From the UHGV virus genome UHGV-0106252: a DNA stretch of 41,044 nucleotides. The stretch is one strand, 5' to 3'. Below, piece by piece: positions 18,175-41,039 of the stretch (the first letter of the stretch is position 1; each line of letters starts with the position of its first letter). Below the pieces are notes generated by a model, which saw only the letters and a list, made by a program, of their open reading frames with translations, ran no database searches and was not told the origin of the DNA. The position numbers and the translations under genes were made by a program. The DNA is from a virus.

Positions 18175-18669
18175 ATGAATATGGCAGCACCAAAGGGCAA
18201 CCGATTTTGGGAGGCCCGCAGTAGTCATGGGCGAAATCCTAAATTCGAATCGCCTGAGGCGCTGTGGGCTGCTTGTTGTGAATACTTCGAGTGGGTGGAA
18301 GCTAACCCGCTATGGGAGATGAAGGCGTTCTCGTATCAGGGTGAAGTAATACAAGAGCCTATCGCCAAGATGCGAGCGATGACCATTACCGGCCTCACTC
18401 TGTTCATTGATGTGACGCTTGAAACATGGCGCACATATCGCCTGCGAGAAGATTTATCTGAAGTCGTTACGCGAGCAGAACAGGTCATCTACGACCAGAA
18501 ATTCTCTGGCGCAGCCGCTGACCTTCTCAACGCTAACATCATCGCCCGTGATTTGGGCCTCAAAGAGCAGTCGCAAGTTGAAGACGTGACACCTGATAAG
18601 GGAGATCGCGATAAGCGGCGCTCTCGTATCAAGGAGCTATTCAACCGTGGAACTGGACGCGATTCTTGA
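18175..18669 (+). CDS. Terminase small subunit (P22 gp3 type)
   Basis: [47 protein letters not shown]... is close to P22 gp3. Contains the pac site. Confidence 0.9.
18448..18475 (+). promoter_or_regulatory. pac site (headful packaging initiation)
   Basis: GAAGATTTATCTGAAGTCGTTACGCGAG matches the P22 pac sequence as I recall it, inside the small terminase gene. Confidence 0.7.
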
Positions 18670-20146
18670 TAACCTGAGCGACGAAGAGCAAATCGAGTTG
18701 CTCGAGCTACTCGAAGAAGAAGAGAACTACCGGAACACACACCTGCTATATGAATTTACGCCATACAGCAAGCAGCGTGAGTTCATCGACGCCGGGCATG
18801 ACTATCCAGAGCGATGTTTTATGGCTGGTAACCAGCTTGGTAAGTCATTTACTGGTGCTGCTGAAGTCGCGTTTCACCTTACCGGTCGTTATCCGGGCAC
18901 AAAAGGCTATCCTGCTGATGGTAAATATGGCGGTGAGTGGAAAGGTAAGCGTTTCTATGAGCCTGTTGTCTTCTGGATTGGTGGAGAGACAAACGAGACT
19001 GTAACCAAAACGACTCAACGCATCCTGTGCGGTCGTATCGAAGAGAATGGTGAGCCAGGCTACGGTTCCATACCGAAAGAGGACATCATTAGCTGGAAGA
19101 AGTCTCCTTTCTTTCCGAACCTTGTTGATCATCTTCTGGTTAAGCATCACACGGCTGATGGCGTTGAAGATGGTATTTCAATCTGCTACTTCAAACCATA
19201 CTCGCAAGGCCGTGCTCGCTGGCAGGGTGACACAATCCACGGTGTGTGGTTTGACGAAGAACCACCATACAGCATTTATGGCGAAGGGCTTACCCGTACC
19301 AACAAATACGGGCAATTCTCAATTCTGACGTTTACCCCGCTGATGGGGATGTCTGACGTTGTTACCAAGTTCCTGAAGAATCCCAGCAAGTCGCAGAAAG
19401 TGGTCAACATGACCATCTATGACGCTGAGCACTACACCGACGAGCAGAAAGAGCAAATCATCGCATCCTATCCTGAGCATGAGAGAGAGGCGCGTGCTCG
19501 CGGTATTCCTACGATGGGTAGCGGGCGAATCTTCCAGATACCGGAAGAGACGATTAAGTGTCAGCCGTTCGAGTGCCCTGATCACTTTTACGTAATTGGC
19601 GGTATGGATTTCGGATGGGATCACCCGCAGGCGCAGGTTCAGCTTTGGTGGGATAAGGACGCAGACACAATCTACGTTTCACGCGTGTGGAAGGCGAAAG
19701 AAAAAACAGCCGTTCAGGCGTGGGGAGCCGTTAAATCTTGGGCGCATAAAGTGCCAACCGCATGGCCTCATGACGGAAACCAGCACGAGAAGGGCGGCGG
19801 TGAGCAGCTTAAAGGGCAGTACGCGGACGCTGGTTTTATGATGTTGCAGGAGCATGCGACATGGCCTGATGGCGGTAATGCTGTTGAGCCTGGCATCACT
19901 GAATTGCGCGACATGATGCTCGATGGACGCTTCAAAGTATTCAACACCTGTGAGCCATTCTTTGAGGAGTTCCGCCTCTATCACCGTGATGAAAACGGGA
20001 AGATCGTCAAGCTTAACGATGACGTTCTCTCAGCCGTTCGCTATGCATACATGATGCGCCGCTTCGCAAAAATGATGCGCGACATCAAAAAACCAAAAGA
20101 GAAAAAGATACCAGCCCCAATCAGGCCCATCGCACGGAGAACTTAA
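18647..20146 (+). CDS. Terminase large subunit (P22 gp2 type)
   Basis: 499 aa, ATPase and nuclease domains; GTG start overlapping the small-subunit 3' end. Confidence 0.9.
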
Positions 20147-32185: not shown

Positions 32186-32752
32186 TTATTTTATAGTTTT
32201 TATGAATTCTTTATTAAATCCCTTAGCTTCTCCGGGATATCTTCCAAAGACAATTTTTATAAAAACAGAAAAAATAAAGATAGCAACGCTTAACAACAGT
32301 TGCAGTATCATTGGAACCCAAAGAACTACAGGCTCTATATTCATGAAACCAAATATTCTTCCGGCGATCATGGCGAAGTACCACACTGTTATCAGCAAAC
32401 TTAGTGGCATATGAATTACTGATATTACCAATCCAAGAGCATCAGTAATTCTATTTTCAAATTTTTCAGGGGAAAACTTTTCTTTAAGGTAATTCAGTGC
32501 GCAGGCCTCATTCTCTGGATTTTCAGCATTTTTCCCTATAGCAATAGAAATCTCAGATATCCTTGATTCAATTCTTTTGCGTTTAATAAAACTAGAAAAA
32601 AAGAACCACGCAATCTGCAACCCTATCCCCATAAATAGAGTTGCGGCAACTAGCACAGCGTAACTCATAGAATCAGACACACCAACCTCTTTAGTTTTTC
32701 TAGTTACTTTGTCACGATAGGATATGCGAATTGATAAAACTAAATTGCGCAC
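32186..32752 (-). CDS. Integral membrane protein, SieA-like by position
   Basis: Three predicted TM segments; AT-rich; convergent with gp16 where P22 carries sieA. Start uncertain (GTG at 32752 or ATG at 32668). Confidence 0.5.
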
Positions 32753-32897: not shown

Positions 32898-33479
32898 CTA
32901 TCTAAACGTTGCACACGACTCATCTATCCATTTTTCATAAAATTGTATACCGAGATAGGCAAGAACAGATGGATGTATATCAACAAGCTTTTCGCCAAGA
33001 TGTTCTGTTGGAGGTGGATAATCTTTGCCTTGGTTTCTTACGGTTATAGGCATAGTTGTTGCTGGATGAAACTCAACTATCATAGGGTCGCCTTCGTATT
33101 TTGCTATTTTCCCTGTTGAATCAATGATTAACTCTTTAATATAATGGCTTCTTGCTCCCGGAAATGCCCCAAGAGTAGTATAAGGAGGTTCAAGTTTTGA
33201 GATTTCCATAGTGGAATGATGATCAGCATTTCTTGCTTGGTGAAGGTAAGCAAGTGTTTTGTCTGTTTTTCTAAGCATGAACTTTTGGTTGAAGTGGCTG
33301 CTAAATTTTCCACTAACCGGCTTTGTTGCACAGAGCAACTTACTGAAAGACTTTTCTATATGCCCAAGACATTCTCGCCAGTGCATTTCAAAATCATCAT
33401 GGTTTGTAGATGATTTCATCTGCTCTAGGCACTTTTTAGCTGCGATGATTTCTTTTTTTGCTGGGTTGTAATCGATCAT
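32898..33479 (-). CDS. Unknown 193-aa protein co-transcribed with mnt
   Basis: ATG overlaps the mnt stop (ATGA). AT-rich; no motif I recognise. Confidence 0.55.
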   Translation of the reverse strand: MIDYNPAKKEIIAAKKCLEQMKSSTNHDDFEMHWRECLGHIEKSFSKLLCATKPVSGKFSSHFNQKFMLRKTDKTLAYLHQARNADHHSTMEISKLEPPYTTLGAFPGARSHYIKELIIDSTGKIAKYEGDPMIVEFHPATTMPITVRNQGKDYPPPTEHLGEKLVDIHPSVLAYLGIQFYEKWIDESCATFR

Positions 33480-33730
33480 TTTGCATCCTTGCCATACATG
33501 TTTTTAAGTGTCTCAAATACCACAGACTTGAACTGTTCAGCCTGCATCTCGGCTAATCGTTCAGCTTCATTGCGATAACCTTTTACAGGAGATGGTCTCG
33601 ATAGAGCATCTTGGACGATTTGCAACAATTCTGAGTTCATTGATCTACCATTTGACTCTGCTCTGTATTTTAATTTTTCTCTTACTTCCAAAGGCATGCG
33701 GAAGTTAAAGTGCGGATCATCTCTAGCCAT
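33476..33730 (-). CDS. mnt: Mnt repressor (ribbon-helix-helix)
   Basis: MARDDPHFNFRMPLEVREKLKYRAESNGRSMNSELLQIVQDAL... is close to P22 Mnt. Confidence 0.9.
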   Translation of the reverse strand: MARDDPHFNFRMPLEVREKLKYRAESNGRSMNSELLQIVQDALSRPSPVKGYRNEAERLAEMQAEQFKSVVFETLKNMYGKDAK

Positions 33731-33752: not shown

Positions 33753-33805
33753 TTGACATGATAGAAGCACTCTACTATATTCTCAATAGGTCCACCGTGG
33801 ACCTA
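33753..33805. promoter_or_regulatory. immI control region: Pant with Oarc and Omnt operators
   Basis: ATGATAGAAGCACTCTACTAT (33758-33778) matches the P22 arc operator as I recall it; TAGGTCCACCGTGGACCTA (33787-33805) is the palindromic mnt operator; TTGACA at 33753-33758. Confidence 0.85.
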
Positions 33806-33820
33806 TATTGTGAGGTGAAC

Positions 33821-33982
33821 ATGAAAGGAATGAGCAAAATGCCGCAGTTCAATTTGCGGTGGCCTAAAGAAGTATTGGATTTGGTACGCAAGGTGGCGGA
33901 AGAGAATGGTCGGTCTGTTAACTCTGAGATTTATCAGAGAGTAATGGACAGCTTTAAGAAGGAAGGGCGTATTGGCGCGTAA
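33821..33982 (+). CDS. arc: Arc repressor
   Basis: [53 protein letters not shown] is near-identical to P22 Arc (53 aa). Confidence 0.92.
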
Positions 33983-34050
33983 AGTTGAAGCCCCAACTGC
34001 GGGAACAGTCAGGGCTTCTGTTGTCAGTAAATTCGTGGAGAAAAACCAAC

Positions 34051-34953
34051 ATGAATAGTATAGCAATTTTAGAAGCAGTGAACACCTCTTACGTACCTTT
34101 CAATGGTCAGCAGATTATCACCGCCATGACTGCCGGAGTTGCATATGTTGCGATGAAGCCAATCGTTAAAAACCTTGGAATGAGCTGGTCAACGCAGCAA
34201 ACAAAACTCATGAAGCAGATTAGCAAATTCAACTGTGTTCATATGAACATGGTTGCCGCTGATGGTAAGCTTCGTAGGCTACTCTGCCTTCCTTTGAAGA
34301 AGTTAAATGGATGGCTGTTCAGCATCAACCCTGAGAAAGTTCGTGCTGACATCCGCGATAAACTGATTCAGTACCAGGAAGAATGCTTTACTGTGCTGCA
34401 TGACTACTGGACGAAGGGAAAGGCAGAAAATGCACGTAAGAAAACATCTGTTGATGACAGGACTCCGCTTCGTGATGCTGTAAATATGCTAGTCAGCAAA
34501 AAGCATCTAATGTACCCAGAAGCTTATGCAATGATTCATCAGCGTTTCAACGTGGAAAGTATTGAAGAGCTTGATTCATCTCAGATACCGCAAGCAGTAG
34601 AGTACATCCACAGGGTAGTGCTTGAAGGCGAGTTCATCGGCAAACAAGAGAAGAAAACCAACGAGCTTTCTGCAAAAGAAGCAAACAGCCTTGTATGGCT
34701 ATGGGATTATGCCAACCGCTCACAGGCATTATTCCGCGAACTGTATCCGGCATTAAAACAAATTCAATCGAACTATTCCGGCAGATGCTACGACTACGGT
34801 CATGAATTCTCGTATGTTATCGGAATGGCGAGAGACGTTTTAATAAACCACACACGAGATGTTGATATTAATGAGCCAGACGGACCAACGAATCTTTCCG
34901 CATGGATGAGACTTAAGAATAAAGAATTACCTCCTTCAGTACATAACTACTGA
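34051..34953 (+). CDS. ant: Antirepressor Ant
   Basis: 300 aa, [26 protein letters not shown]... close to P22 Ant. Confidence 0.9.
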
Positions 34954-34972
34954 CAGATAACCAACGCAACGA

Positions 34973-34996
34973 CCCAGCTTCGGCTGGGTTTTTTTA
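34973..34996 (+). terminator. Rho-independent terminator after ant
   Basis: CCCAGC-TTCG-GCTGGG hairpin followed by T7. Confidence 0.75.
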
Positions 34997-35062
34997 TGCC
35001 CAAAATTCACCGTAGCTACGCTGCGGCGATTCCTTGTATCTGGAGCAATGAAATGTCAGATA

Positions 35063-35572
35063 TCACCTACCATGATTCTCATGATAACCATAGGTCTTTT
35101 CAGCCTCACGCCTTACAGCAATTGCATCATCGAGACACTTAAAGTATCCGAGATTAATGCGCTTCCCTGCGTCGCTAATATATGCCACCCACTTTTTATG
35201 GGTCTTATGCCATGAAACACCTGCGCACCCAGATGTATTGTTTGTGTATTTAGATTTGTTTTTTAGGTTTTCACCGAGACTAACTAGACGCAGGTTGTCT
35301 ATTGAATTATTTAACCCATTACCATCTTTATGGTCAATTTGCATTCCTGAAGGGATTTCACCATAAAACATTTCCCATATTATCCTATGGGCGGCGTATA
35401 TTTTATCTTGATACCTGATAATTATATAAGATGTTTTCCTGTTCTTGTCCTTGAATATATGTCCTGCAGGCTTTTCTTTAGAGATATTGAACATTTTGGG
35501 TCTTGAAAGATATTGGTCACTCCAGTACAGGAGTCCATCGTCTTTTAATACGAATACTTCGTTCCAGTTCAT
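35063..35572 (-). CDS. HNH homing-type endonuclease with C-terminal AP2 DNA-binding domain
   Basis: HNH motif IDHKDGNGLNNSIDNLRLVSLGENLKNK, then AP2-like SGCAGVSWHKTHKKWVAYISDAGKRINLGYF. AAGGTGG SD before the ATG at 35572. AT-rich. Confidence 0.75.
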   Translation of the reverse strand: MNWNEVFVLKDDGLLYWSDQYLSRPKMFNISKEKPAGHIFKDKNRKTSYIIIRYQDKIYAAHRIIWEMFYGEIPSGMQIDHKDGNGLNNSIDNLRLVSLGENLKNKSKYTNNTSGCAGVSWHKTHKKWVAYISDAGKRINLGYFKCLDDAIAVRREAEKTYGYHENHGR

Positions 35573-35658
35573 GTTAACCACCTTTAAATAAAGTTCACTC
35601 ATTATACAAAAACATGCTAGCAATGAATATTGCTTGCTTAACATATAGAGAAATTAAA

Positions 35659-37605
35659 ATGACAGATTCAATAAATGCCAATGTTGTGGTAAGCATGCCT
35701 TCGCAACTCTTCACTATGGCTCGTTCTTTTAAAGCCGTAGCCAATGGCAAAATTTATATCGGTAAAATTGACACTGACCCTGTAAATCCTGAAAACCAGA
35801 TTCAGGTTTATGTGGAAAACGAAGACGGCTCTCACGTTTCTGTTGCACAGCCAATCATCATTAACGCTGCTGGATATCCGGTATATAACGGGCAGATTGC
35901 CAAATTCGTAACTGTGCAAGGCCATTCTATGGCTGTATATGATGCGTATGGCACGCAGCAGTTCTATTTCCCTAATGTGCTGAAATATGACCCTGATCAA
36001 TTTCAGGAAAGATTGCTATCTGAAAATGGGCCATTATTAGTTGATGATTCAGTTGTTCGTGTAAAACAACCCCTCTCTATGGCAATCGAGAGAGCACAGC
36101 ACGATAAAAATGCAGATTTTGTGAGCGCGAAAGACTTTGGGTTTAAAGGTGATGGCACGAATGATGATGCTGCGGTGCTCAAACTTAAAGATTACGTTAA
36201 CACAAGACCTAAATATTCTCCACCAGTATCCGTGTACTTTCCAGATGGAAATTATCTTATTAGCGAGTCATTGAATTTAATTAGACCTGTTACTTTATAC
36301 TCTTTTAAAGGAGCAACAATAAACTATACTGGAACTGACGCTGCAGTTAAGTGTGGAGATCCAACTGACGAAGATCAACCAACAGCAGATAATTTTTATC
36401 AAGGTGATTATGTAATTTATGGAATTAGATTCACTGGTGGTCAAAATGCAAAGTTTGGAATAATGGTAAAGAGCTTTGTTTTTACACCAAAAATACAATA
36501 TTGTGATTTTATTGATTATGGTAATAAGGATTCTTATGATATATATGCTCAGTTTGAAAACTGGGATATCCTTATAGAAGGATGCTATAAAAAAACATTT
36601 TTTAGTGATATTGCAATAGGTAATTTCATTTCTTTACCTGGTAAAAAAACGGATGGCAGTGCATATGATGGTGGGAACTCTAGAGTTACAATAAGAGATT
36701 GCGCCATGGCAGCATATAACAATCAAGATTTAGGATATTTTGCCTATATTAACTGCGTTAAGGGGCGAGTAATTGGAGGTAGTGCGCATCACTCTACAGG
36801 TGGAATACTACTTGGACCAGCGGCATCTGGAACGCTTATTGATGGATTTTATTGTGAAGTAAGTACTCAACACAGACCTTGGGTAATATCTGTTTTAAGT
36901 GATAAAACTAATCCTGATAATTATTTGTTTCCTCAGTCTGTTACGGTAAGAAATGTGTATGTAAATATGCATAAAGAAAAAATTGGTAATGCTGGTAAGC
37001 TTATTGGTGTCATGGATGCTGATGTGAAGTTAAGAGACTGGAGTGTAACAGACTGCCAGATTTCAAACTTCGAAAATGGTCAAGTTCTTATTGATAGAAA
37101 TGATCTTAATGAGCAGATCGGTAACACTTATGCAAGAATAAAACCAATTTTTGTTCCTTATAATTCTGGTGGTGGAAGTAAATTTATTGTTACTGGAAAA
37201 CTAACAACAGCAGAAGACTGGTCGTGTGGTGATATAGAAACTGGAGTTTGGATTCCGACTGTAGGCGGAAATGCCTCCTACTATAAACAAGTTGGAAGTT
37301 ATACAAGAACTGGTGATGTAGTGACCGCAAGTTTTCACATAGGGATAACGATTATTGGAAGTGGAGATGGTTATAGGATAGGTGGATTACCTTTTTTGTC
37401 ACGACCAGGGGCTACTTCTGTTGGATCTATTGGGTATTACAATAACTTAACTACGGCTGTGGCTGCGCTATTGCCTAGGGTTGATGCTGAAAGTAATTAC
37501 ATAACATTTACAGGAGCTACATCTGTCGCTGGTAATATGAATGTACAACTAAATGTTCTAGGTAATAATGCTGAGATAATTGGTTCTGTTACTTATTTTA
37601 TATAA
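35659..37605 (+). CDS. Tailspike protein (P22 gp9-like head-binding domain, divergent receptor domain)
   Basis: N-terminal ~110 aa ([35 protein letters not shown]...) parallels the P22 tailspike head-binding domain; the rest is AT-rich and unlike the P22 beta-helix as I recall it. Confidence 0.8.
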
Positions 37606-37665: not shown

Positions 37666-39666
37666 CTAATTAATTACAAAGCCGTTATCATTAAGTATTT
37701 CTTTAACACCAGATTTAGATAAGTGAAAACCAACATTATATAATCCGCCGTTATGGTCAATTATTCTACAACCATTGTCATCACATAAAGTTTTTATAGG
37801 TTTTATCTTATGCAATCCTTTCATGTCAGGAATATATTTATCTAATATATCGGATTGTTGTTTTGCTAAGTTAAGCCCATTTCTGCTGCTTGTGTATGTT
37901 GTCTCAAACTTATAATTGATAGATCTTAGTTTTGAGAATACTATGTTGGCAACATCTTCAGAAGGATTAGGGGTTGGGTATACAATATATACATCATGCC
38001 CCTTGGACACGAGTTTCTTAACATTATTCGATAGAGAGATATATGCCTGCTCGCCACCTAAAAAATCTCCGCCACTAAAATTTTGCTTCGCCATCTCTAA
38101 AGGAGATGACACAGGAGCCTTAGCAAGCGGGAATTGATCATAATTAGCAGCTATAAAAATAGTTTTCTTCCCCTTAAGAGAATCAATGGCTTTCCATCTT
38201 TGCTCATTGACAACCACACATTCAGGAACATTGCCAAACCACATATCACTCACAAATGGACATTGCTCATACGTGAGAGATAACATCCCTTTGTTATTTT
38301 CTTTTGAGTAATCTAAAATTGTTGGTGCATATTGTCCAGCATAGCTATCTCCTAATACGATGATGTCATCACCGCCAAAGCTACACGGGTTATCAAGAGA
38401 ACGTAAACCACATAAATAACTATCAGGTTCACCTCTTAAACTTTTACCAATATTTGAATAATCTGCCAATTTCCTGAACTCTGGTTCTTTGTACATTTCA
38501 TAGGTTTCTTTCAGAATGCCTGCAAGACGCCACTGAAAACCCCCATCGGCCTTTGCATAAATAGAGAAAGCAAGCAATGCTGACAGAGATGTTGCTAATA
38601 CTATTGTATTCTTACTTTTAACATGTTTTGCTCTATATGGTTTTTCAATAAAAAAATATGAAAAAGACGAAATAACAATTGAAATTGATGCTAATACTAC
38701 ACAGTAATAAGGAGTGATATTTTCACTAAATAATATCCTGTAAAAAACAAAAACAGGTTGATGCCATAAATATAGAGAATATGATATCAAGCCAATAAAG
38801 ACAATCGGACGCAAGGATAATATTTTAGATATTAAATCGGCACCATTTGCAAATGCGATTATCAAACATGAACCAGCTACAGGTATTAGGGTGATAAATG
38901 AAGGGTGTTTGATGTTATTTCCAAAAAACAACATTGAATAAACAATCATCAACATTCCAATTACTGGCAGAAACGAAGTTAAAGATGATTGGTCTTTATG
39001 TATATTGCTTCTTCTTTCTTTTACAAAAAAAGACACAATTCCACCAAGAATTAATTCCCATGCCCTTGGTAGTAGCGTATAGAATGCTAAGTCAGGGTAA
39101 CTGCTAACTATAATATTTGCATACACAATAGATGAAACAGAAATCAATATAAGAAGTAATACTCTGTATTTCTTAATAAATTTATTTATAAAAATCAATA
39201 AGAATGGATAAAATACGTAGAATTGCCATTCAACAGCAAGACTCCATGTATGAAGGAGTGGTTTAAATATACTTGCATTTGATACATAGCTATCTTCACC
39301 AAGAAAATAATAATTAGAACCAAAATAAATAGCAGAAATGAGAGATTCAGAGAATTTTACTAAGTCATTTGGTAGAAGAATTTTATAAGCCACTATCGAT
39401 GTAACTACAAGCATAGCAATAAGAGCAGGAACAATTCTCTTTATGCGTCTCCAATAGAAGTCAGTTAGTGAGAAAGAGCGGCTATCAAGTTTATTTATAA
39501 TGATATCTGTAATTAAATATCCTGAAAGAACCAGGAAGACATCAACTCCAAAGAATCCGCCTTTGAATATCTTTACTCCAAACAAAGAAATGCCAGAGTG
39601 ATAAATGATGACAGCCATCACTGCCAAACAACGCAATCCATCAAGCTCTTTCCTATACTTAAGCAT
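37666..39666 (-). CDS. oac: O-antigen acetyltransferase (acyltransferase-3 membrane domain plus SGNH domain; Oac/OafA-like)
   Basis: 666 aa; N-terminal multi-TM acyltransferase-3 domain (RCLAVMAVIIYH...), C-terminal SGNH-like domain. AT-rich. Same position as oac in Sf6. Confidence 0.75.
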   Translation of the reverse strand: MLKYRKELDGLRCLAVMAVIIYHSGISLFGVKIFKGGFFGVDVFLVLSGYLITDIIINKLDSRSFSLTDFYWRRIKRIVPALIAMLVVTSIVAYKILLPNDLVKFSESLISAIYFGSNYYFLGEDSYVSNASIFKPLLHTWSLAVEWQFYVFYPFLLIFINKFIKKYRVLLLILISVSSIVYANIIVSSYPDLAFYTLLPRAWELILGGIVSFFVKERRSNIHKDQSSLTSFLPVIGMLMIVYSMLFFGNNIKHPSFITLIPVAGSCLIIAFANGADLISKILSLRPIVFIGLISYSLYLWHQPVFVFYRILFSENITPYYCVVLASISIVISSFSYFFIEKPYRAKHVKSKNTIVLATSLSALLAFSIYAKADGGFQWRLAGILKETYEMYKEPEFRKLADYSNIGKSLRGEPDSYLCGLRSLDNPCSFGGDDIIVLGDSYAGQYAPTILDYSKENNKGMLSLTYEQCPFVSDMWFGNVPECVVVNEQRWKAIDSLKGKKTIFIAANYDQFPLAKAPVSSPLEMAKQNFSGGDFLGGEQAYISLSNNVKKLVSKGHDVYIVYPTPNPSEDVANIVFSKLRSINYKFETTYTSSRNGLNLAKQQSDILDKYIPDMKGLHKIKPIKTLCDDNGCRIIDHNGGLYNVGFHLSKSGVKEILNDNGFVIN

Positions 39667-39836: not shown

Positions 39837-40994
39837 TTACAGCACACTTTCATCAAGCCAGTCCGCCCACCACTGCATCATTTCTCTGCGCTTATCGAGA
39901 TACTGAGCATGGTTGTAAATACCGCGCACAGATCCTCCGTTGGCATGTGCCAGTTGCACTTCAATAGCGTCAGCAGGCCATTCGTGCTCGTTCATAATCG
40001 TGCTGAATTCATGCCTGAATCCGTGACCGCTTTCCAGACCTTCATAGCCGATTTGTTTGATCACAAGTAGTACCGCGTTCTCGCAGATTGGCTTCTTCTT
40101 ATCGTTGCGTCCGGCAAAAACAAACTCTGATACTGGTTTAGTGATTGAGCTTAGCGTAGTGAGAAGTTCAACCACCTGGTCTGACATAGGAACAACATGA
40201 ATCTTGCGGCCCTTCATCACACTGGCGTCGATAGTGATAATCCTGTTTTCAAAATCGACGTTCTTCCATTGCATGGAACGAAGCTCTTTTGTTCTGAGGG
40301 CTGTGTAGCGTAAAACTTTGGTCGCAATGAGCGATACGATACTTCCTGAAAATGTTGCCAGTGCTTTGTTGAATGCCGGGATCTGGTCTGCAGGAAGAAA
40401 CGGGAAGTTCTTCTTGCGGTATCCCTTCATGGCGTCAGCAAGGTCAGGTGCCGGGTTATATTTAGCCCTTCCGGTGACAATAGCGTAACGGAAAACCTCG
40501 CCGCATCTTCTGCGTGCTTTGTTGGCTCGCTCCATTGCACCGCGATCTTCAAACCTGCGGATTACTTCCAGCAGTTGCATAGGCTCAATATCCTGAATTT
40601 CAAGGCCGCCGATGATAGGTAAAATGTCGTCATCAAACATTTTTGCAAGTTCAGTTGCATAGCCTACTGACCAGACTTGCTTCTTGTGCTCGTACCATTC
40701 CTTGTAAATCGCACTAAAGGAATTGTTGTTAGACGAAGCCTTTTTCGCTTTTACCGGATCGATGCCAACCGAGATGTCTTTCCTCGCAGTCCATGCTTTA
40801 TCCCTTGCCTCCTGCAAAGTCATAAGCGGATATTTTCCTACGGTCAGGATTTTCTCCTTACCGTCAATCTTGTAGCGAAGCTGCCATACCTTTTTCCCTG
40901 ACACAGGGACATAAAGGTACAGGCCATTACCATCGAGTAGGCGGTATGGTTTTTCTTTCGGCTTTGCTGCTTCAATCTGCTTAACGGTGAGCAT
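39837..40994 (-). CDS. int: Tyrosine integrase (P4/IntS family)
   Basis: N-terminal DUF4102-type arm-binding domain; C-terminal catalytic domain with R...HGFRH...Y. ATG at 40994 gives 385 aa; the ORF track extends to a GTG at 41030. Confidence 0.9.
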   Translation of the reverse strand: MLTVKQIEAAKPKEKPYRLLDGNGLYLYVPVSGKKVWQLRYKIDGKEKILTVGKYPLMTLQEARDKAWTARKDISVGIDPVKAKKASSNNNSFSAIYKEWYEHKKQVWSVGYATELAKMFDDDILPIIGGLEIQDIEPMQLLEVIRRFEDRGAMERANKARRRCGEVFRYAIVTGRAKYNPAPDLADAMKGYRKKNFPFLPADQIPAFNKALATFSGSIVSLIATKVLRYTALRTKELRSMQWKNVDFENRIITIDASVMKGRKIHVVPMSDQVVELLTTLSSITKPVSEFVFAGRNDKKKPICENAVLLVIKQIGYEGLESGHGFRHEFSTIMNEHEWPADAIEVQLAHANGGSVRGIYNHAQYLDKRREMMQWWADWLDESVL

Positions 40995-41039
40995 GGGTAA
41001 AAATCCGGTGGGTAAAATTATTTTATCCACTTTTTACCC
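40995..41039. repeat. GGGTAAAA / TTTTACCC motif array upstream of int (candidate Int arm or RDF binding sites)
   Basis: GGGTAAAA at 40995-41002 and 41010-41017; TTTTACCC at 41032-41039; degenerate TTTTATCC at 41021-41028. Continues at 36-55. Confidence 0.5.

Follow-up and report, generated by a model that had tools for sequence, protein, structure and literature searches.

What is an HNH endonuclease gene doing in a P22-like prophage, where it lies between ant and the tailspike gene on the strand opposite to both, and did it arrive there as a mobile element in its own right? We analyzed the question in a stretch of 41,044 nucleotides (UHGV virus genome UHGV-0106252), referred to here as the window. 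The window carries a P22-like (Lederbergvirus-type) prophage of E. coli, and its positions 34900–35800 matched E. coli strain 81 (NZ_CP088131.1) with 100% identity.

The genes mnt (33476–33730, minus strand), arc (33758–33982, plus strand) and ant (34051–34953, plus strand), together with the sar antisense RNA at the arc–ant junction (33983–34050, minus strand; Rfam RF00262, 91 bits), made up a complete P22-type immI region. A terminator scan placed an intrinsic terminator 3' of ant (34971–34997, plus strand), which was kept with or without the insertion described below and was identical in CUS-3 and Kapi1. The HNH-AP2 endonuclease gene followed (35063–35572, minus strand; 169 aa and a TGA stop), and then an essential gene, that of the tailspike (35659–37605, plus strand; 648 aa), so that the position and orientation given in the preliminary description were confirmed. 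The tailspike consisted of a P22-type head-binding domain (Pfam Head_binding, 7.9e-65) and a pectate-lyase-like receptor-binding part (Pect-lyase_RHGA_epim, 2.4e-9); it is the presumed target locus of the HNH-AP2 gene. Convergent with it was a gene for an AT3-SGNH acyltransferase (37666–39666, minus strand; 666 aa; PHROG_6705, O-antigen acetylase), probably a serotype-converting gene, and an unannotated 397-aa ORF (39837–41030, minus strand) lay at the integrase position of P22-like prophages.

Two further ORFs, of 188 aa (32186–32752, minus strand) and 193 aa (32898–33479, minus strand), lay between gene 16 and mnt, in the position of the sieA-type accessory genes of P22. Neither had a PADLOC or NCBIfam match; the 193-aa product had no Pfam match and belonged to PHROG_23516, a family of unknown function.

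The HNH gene had a G+C content of 38.2%, below that of ant (43.1%) and of the window as a whole (45.9%). The gene is thus AT-rich, as had been said of it, but this does not set it apart, since the tailspike gene (37.3%) and the acyltransferase gene (33.5%) are equally AT-rich.

The HNH protein matched Pfam HNH_3 (PF13392) with E=1.5e-20 and 72.9 bits, above the cutoff of 24.8, and was assigned to PHROG_99 (HNH endonuclease) at 5e-59. The HNH_3 (beta-beta-alpha-metal) nuclease motif occupied residues 59–105 (35258–35398, minus strand). Its match to Pfam AP2 (PF00847) remained below the cutoff (E=8e-5, 23.3 bits against 33.3), and PF00847 matches were precomputed for several of its homologs. The AlphaFold model (pLDDT 93.5) placed strands at residues 119–122, 127–134 and 137–144 and a helix at 147–161. 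In a Foldseek search, residues ~117–161 (35090–35224, minus strand) superimposed on the AP2 domain of AtERF1 (1gcc_A) with an rmsd of 1.3 A over 48 columns, and the same part also matched TEM1 and WRI1 (7et5, 7wq5) with probabilities of 0.94–1.00. Judged by the profile match and the predicted structure together, both the HNH domain and the AP2 domain are real in this 169-aa protein, which bears out the compact HNH nuclease with a C-terminal AP2 domain described earlier.

The best Foldseek match to the whole model was I-HmuI of the Bacillus phage SPO1 (1u3e_M, probability 1.00), which was also the sole solved relative by sequence; the global TM-score to 1u3e was only 0.41, owing to a different arrangement of the domains. 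Residues D80, H81 and N102 aligned with D74, H75 and N96 of I-HmuI (phmmer against 1u3e). In I-HmuI, the Asp-His pair is reportedly catalytic, and the Asn is said to bind the metal. In an alignment of 60 homologs H62, D80, H81, N89 and N93 were invariant, and N102 was at least 90% conserved. The two proteins share the HNH_3 core with the aligned Asp-His...Asn and an N-terminal region rich in beta strands, and in both zinc-binding cysteines are absent, there being no CxxC or Cys4 zinc site in the HNH protein. Since the nicking enzyme I-HmuI lacks the zinc site as well, the protein may, by analogy, be a nickase. The differences are considerable: identity is only ~18–25%, and I-HmuI is encoded by a group I intron and ends in a helix-turn-helix, whereas the window protein is free-standing, carries an AP2 domain and is encoded on the strand opposite to its neighbor. 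No Rfam match to an intron RNA family was found at the HNH locus.

The HNH gene has its own Shine–Dalgarno sequence, AAAGGTGG (35578–35585, minus strand), 5 nt ahead of the ATG and kept in all E. coli cassette copies. The RefSeq call of the gene was likewise 510 nt long and labeled 'HNH endonuclease signature motif containing protein'. A longer reading of 193 aa from 35644 was rejected as not conserved, because a polymorphic run of A (5–7 A, 35608–35612) shifts its frame in other loci. Comparison of orthologs gave dN/dS values of 0.08–0.15, with synonymous sites saturated; by this measure the protein is under purifying selection, and its catalytic residues are intact.

The gene does not occupy the simple intergenic slot that had been proposed. 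Immediately to the left of its 3' end we found a vestigial tailspike translation-initiation region, CTGGAGCAATGAAATGTCAGATATCAC (35040–35066, plus strand), with a GGAG at 35042–35045 and a start codon opening the stub ATGTCAGATATCAC (35053–35066), which is cut off within codon 5. Tailspike starts of three alleles were distinguished, namely (a) MTDITAN, (b) MTDSINAN and (c) MSDITANV...; CUS-3 has allele (a) and HK620 allele (b). The stub is a truncated allele (c) and, up to the junction, was identical to the intact tailspike starts of cassette-less loci, among them L069, L074 and L083. The stop codon of the HNH gene (35063–35065) lies inside this stub. In an empty-site phage, CUS-3, the tailspike begins ...CTGGAGCAAATTAAATGACAGACATTACAGCCAATG... 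at the corresponding point. The dead start retains both its GGAG and its ATG and opens a 29-codon ORF (35053–35142; MSDITYHDSHDNHRSFQPHALQQLHHRDT) that overlaps the HNH gene in antisense at its 3' end.

At the right end, the tailspike regains a start. The segment 35646–35676 (plus strand) contains the ribosome-binding site TAGAGAAATTAAA, in place of CTGGAGCAAATTAA, and codons 1–6 of the working tailspike (ATG ACA GAT TCA ATA AAT, MTDSIN). The working start at 35659 is of allele (b) and reads ATGACAGATTCAATAAATGCC (MTDSINAN), with one Ser codon more than alleles (a) and (c). By its sequence, the entire translation-initiation region of the tailspike is supplied by the cassette. In the exchange, the Shine–Dalgarno sequence passed from GGAG to the weaker AGAG/GAGA. 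The earlier suggestion that the 5' region of the HNH gene may affect tailspike expression is therefore reasonable, and the effect would be more direct than supposed, since the ribosome-binding site and codons 1–6 are themselves borne on the cassette.

Comparison with P22-like genomes that lack the insert, which had been recommended as a check, defined the site. The BLAST breakpoints against the empty loci CUS-3, L022, L041 and L069 fell at 35061–35070 and at 35651, and positions 35067–35650 were specific to the cassette and missing from empty-site alleles. Against genes of alleles (a) and (c), the insert reached to ~35676 and included the new tailspike codons 1–6; relative to these genes, a cassette of ~610 bp lies after codon 4 2/3. 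Relative to (b) genes, the insertion lies just 5' of the start, between imperfect direct repeats of ~20 bp formed by the initiation region.

The HNH gene and the tailspike gene diverge from a control region of 86 bp. A conserved TATAAT (35601–35606, minus strand), a candidate -10 box for the HNH gene, was located 18–29 nt 5' of its ATG (28 nt in the window) and read TGaTATAAT in the diverged orthologs L102, L103 and L106. A consensus scan of both strands from 34800 to 35900 detected neither a full sigma-70 promoter nor a good -35 for this TATAAT. The run of A mentioned above adjoins the candidate -10 box and varied from 5 to 7 A among otherwise near-identical cassettes (L003–L014); its length therefore alters the spacing of the promoter region, besides opening or closing the 193-aa frame. 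Given the opposite strand, the separate Shine–Dalgarno sequence and the TATAAT as a putative promoter element, the HNH gene is free-standing. In P22, the tailspike is served by late-operon and ant transcripts; by analogy, such transcripts would run antisense through the HNH gene.

Between the TATAAT and the ribosome-binding site of the tailspike, a repeat search found an imperfect palindrome, GCTAGCAAT-GAAT-ATTGCTTGC (35616–35637). It may be a candidate operator, and comparable palindromes occurred in HNH orthologs. Its conservation as an RNA or operator structure had no statistical support: 70% of cells were paired, a level that 211 of 500 shuffles also attained, RNAalifold predicted nothing, and the single-sequence fold had z=+0.30.

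Loci without the gene are the rule. Of 5426 complete E. coli genomes, 1125 contained the 5' region of the head-binding domain, at ~1212 places in all; the cassette was present in 15 of these 5426 genomes (15 of the ~1212 loci, about 1%), and a distantly related gene of the Kapi1 type occupied the same slot in another 15. Among the head-binding loci of IMG/VR the cassette was found in 7 of 80. The remaining 73 were empty. Overall, ~97% of homologous loci were empty, so that the gene is far from being shared by all relatives; its presence in all of them, with no empty sites, had been named as the outcome that would refute a selfish insertion. CUS-3, N7, HZ41, phiv205-1 and HK620 were empty at the site, and we take P22 and Sf6 to be empty-site phages as well. 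A scan of GTDB species representatives added only one E. coli copy and a truncated copy in Escherichia whittamii.

Searches of phage isolates (50,697 records) yielded no relative of the gene above ~60% protein identity; the best full-length tblastn match was 48% identical. The cassette DNA gave only matches of 58–67 bits to these isolates, 64–69 nt long and 80–81% identical, in the HNH core of unrelated phages. We found no paper on the HNH-AP2 gene or its site, and the paper on Kapi1 does not mention Kapi1_066.

The signs of mobility come from 13 cassette loci. The 592-nt cassette was 98.3–100% identical across them, whereas the adjoining 345 nt, encoding the head-binding domain, were only 90.4–93.9% identical in the same loci. 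The upstream neighbor differed (ant with its terminator, mnt alone, and others; at least four contexts), and so did the tailspike C-termini. In all 13 loci the junction read AT[TC]AC followed directly by CTACCATGATT (AT[TC]AC–CTACC). These comparisons suggest that the cassette spread horizontally and recently to one spot in otherwise different prophages.

The stub left of this junction was of allele (c) in nine loci, of allele (a) in three and a hybrid in one, and, the window excepted, it generally fitted the local upstream context. Such a pattern would be expected if the cassette had entered different recipient alleles at precisely the same position, with co-conversion tracts that were very short. 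In the window, an ant-type upstream region is joined to a (c)-type stub at a shared stretch of 10 nt, TCTGGAGCAA, and the left co-conversion tract is therefore only ~28 nt. On the right side, the cassette was linked to the tailspike allele over no more than the first ~50 nt of the ORF. With conversion tracts this short, any initiating break would have been at the insertion point or in its immediate vicinity.

A distinctive head-binding haplotype of the cassette loci, as long co-conversion would leave, was considered and rejected, as beyond 50 nt identity to cassette loci and to empty loci was equal. Within the head-binding domain (tailspike nt 1–345; L022–L101, IMG/VR), blocks of 82–89% identity to the window were located at nt 150–200, 250–300 and 300–350. 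They were independent of start allele and cassette state, and this mosaic therefore indicates frequent recombination within the domain.

Orthologs of the HNH gene were found at 83% (Enterobacter ludwigii), 79%, 75% (Salmonella enterica), 66% and 64% identity, some of them in assemblies from uncultured sources. All of them down to 64% were divergent from, and beside, a Head_binding tailspike, whatever the other neighbor. Most kept the stub, and in all of them the working start contained the extra Ser codon, reading M[TS]DSI[TN][AT]N. A Serratia relative of 45% identity was located elsewhere.

Two decaying copies were observed. In L014 (3001–3506) the HNH gene was frameshifted by a 1-nt deletion in the run CTAAAAAAC, and in the Escherichia whittamii locus L115 (2473–2839, reverse orientation) only the 3' two-thirds of the gene were present (corresponding to window positions 35039–35408). 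Decay of this sort is anticipated in the life cycle of homing endonuclease genes.

The Kapi1-type gene (Kapi1_066, QOC59582.1; L002, 1865–2450) shares with the window gene its slot, its orientation, the left junction ATTAC–CTAC... and a stop codon within the stub. It differs in that identity is 42% and confined to a 92-aa core, the N- and C-terminal parts being unalignable, and in its right end, where 22 bp separate it from a tailspike ATG with the surrogate start MPEQLYNVVVSQ... and the N-terminus MPEQLYNVVVSQPSQLF. An independent second invasion by the Kapi1 gene was considered less likely, its junction and last codons being homologous to those of the window's HNH gene. Because it has the same junction and the same terminal Arg-stop codons, the two insertions probably go back to an ancient shared insertion followed by divergence.

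We conclude, with a probability of roughly 0.6, that the 5' boundary of the tailspike gene in this P22-like E. coli prophage is occupied by a free-standing homing-endonuclease cassette of ~0.6 kb. The selfish, homing-type insertion proposed earlier is supported by the prevalence of empty sites, the higher conservation of the cassette than of its flank, the base-identical junction and purifying selection, a combination that fits a homing endonuclease gene active now or in the recent past. Its target is probably the tailspike start of cassette-less alleles, somewhere from roughly -25 to +30.

The cassette would move when P22-like genomes with and without it meet in one cell, either in a co-infection or when a relative superinfects or recombines with a prophage. 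The enzyme would bind the cassette-less genome and cut or nick it at, or within ~30 bp of, the tailspike start, and recombinational repair off the cassette-bearing copy would then copy the cassette in. Homology on the left would stop at ...ATG(A/T)CAGA(C/T)AT(T/C)AC and restart on the right at GCCAATGT.... Of the recipient's coding sequence, the first 14 bases would be left as a dead stub that also provides the HNH stop codon, and the tailspike would thereafter be translated from the cassette start. The carrier genome is proposed to escape the enzyme because its site is split by the insertion and because the functional copy has a different upstream sequence and a 3-nt insertion (the Ser codon). 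The Ser-codon allele is also frequent without the cassette (27 of 73 empty loci in IMG/VR) and is therefore no proof of target-site immunity. As a side effect, tailspike (host-range) modules would undergo additional recombination at the junction used for their exchange.

Homing is not the only way in which such a cassette could travel. P22-like genomes are highly mosaic, and general recombination with selection could spread a small cassette between conserved flanks, unaided by the nuclease. The gene could thus be a passive moron, or a nuclease with another job, spread by ordinary recombination and kept for a benefit to the prophage, such as exclusion of superinfecting relatives by attack on their DNA, or regulation by DNA binding near immI and the tailspike control region; it would then not catalyze its own transfer. 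This we regard as unlikely, though it is the most serious of the alternatives. It agrees with the location of the gene in the classic accessory stretch from gene 16 to the tailspike, near mnt-arc-ant and sar, with a divergent control region of its own (the conserved TATAAT and the palindrome), with strong purifying selection, which fits a useful function, and with the rarity of the cassette in the population. That rarity (~1% of E. coli loci and no phage isolates above ~60% protein identity) also argues against a strong current drive, and the failure of the scan to find a convincing full sigma-70 promoter for the gene counts against homing as well. Moreover, homing is not inferable from sequence alone (PMC10448857). 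The breakpoints of untargeted recombination, however, should be scattered over the long conserved flanks. The observed junction, which would be hard to obtain in that way, is base-exact, lies in the coding start of the tailspike in at least four backgrounds, and has co-conversion tracts of 0–28 nt. PADLOC and NCBIfam searches with the HNH protein returned generic homing-endonuclease models only and no match to a defence system. An exclusion role, for its part, would be compatible with homing, as exclusion and homing coincide in the seg and mob genes of T4. The base-exact junction and the short tracts argue against purely untargeted recombination, without proving homing.

Domestication of the protein as a DNA-binding regulator is very improbable. 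The AP2 part would then act as a transcription factor at the tailspike/HNH promoter region, and the nuclease would be inactive or irrelevant. The AP2 fold is present, the palindrome lies between the two divergent starts, and some homing endonucleases, such as I-TevI, repress their own genes. Yet D80, H81, N102, H62, N89 and N93 are invariant or nearly so among the 60 homologs, and the palindrome showed no significant covariation.

A packaging-associated role of the HK97 gp74 type, assisting the terminase, has in its favor only that small phage HNH proteins are common, and we consider it ruled out by location and sporadic distribution: the gene lies ~15 kb from ORFs 18175–20146, which by P22 gene order we take to be the terminase genes, is missing from about 97% of related prophages and encodes an HNH_3–AP2 protein other than the gp74 type, and P22-like phages package by a headful mechanism.

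As a homing-endonuclease cassette, the element has known counterparts. In T4, the free-standing endonucleases SegF, SegG and MobE carry out intronless homing. As in the window, the endonuclease gene lies beside a conserved gene and is polymorphic in presence or absence between relatives; the expected mechanism would also be alike, with a break in the endonuclease-less genome and co-conversion of nearby markers. The T4-type genes differ in being strictly intergenic or, in Aeh1, in splitting nrdA into two expressed pieces, whereas the window insert severs its neighbor's ribosome-binding site and first 14 coding bases and provides a surrogate start.

Proteins combining HNH and AP2 domains are a recognized homing-endonuclease family, and their genes are grouped next to essential ones, at boundaries of exchange (PMC10448857). 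HNH-AP2 homing endonucleases are described from phages, cyanobacteria and protists (Magnani et al. 2004, as cited in PMC10448857). The 'IPA-HNH' proteins of the vibriophage ICP1 differ from the window protein in that their HNH domains escape the HNH_3 profile, while that of the window protein is canonical HNH_3; the host element here is a temperate P22-like prophage and no lytic phage, and the site is the tailspike start. The type of element is therefore already known, and what is noteworthy is the start-replacing layout and the location at the tailspike. That the cassette represents something distinct, namely an invasion of the first codons of an essential gene with neither intron nor intein, by an element that brings a surrogate ribosome-binding site and N-terminus for that gene, and in which breaks at the tailspike drive host-range module exchange among P22-like temperate phages and the prophage expresses exclusion and conversion of superinfecting relatives, is a tentative proposal that we consider possible but doubtful.

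Work on free-standing homing endonucleases has centered on lytic phages such as T4, T5, SPO1 and ICP1. The HNH-AP2 cassette occurs in temperate P22-like prophages, at the exact boundary at which tailspike (host-range) modules are swapped. For annotation, it explains a dead ribosome-binding site and ATG stub and means that the translation signals of the tailspike are derived from the cassette. If active, the enzyme would be new and site-specific, possibly a nickase, with an AP2 domain for recognition, in a simple system with tractable empty-site phages (CUS-3 and HK620, and presumably P22 and Sf6). Such a system could show how a homing gene sits inside the start of an essential gene by means of a replacement start, and whether selfish nucleases promote host-range module exchange between a prophage and an infecting relative.
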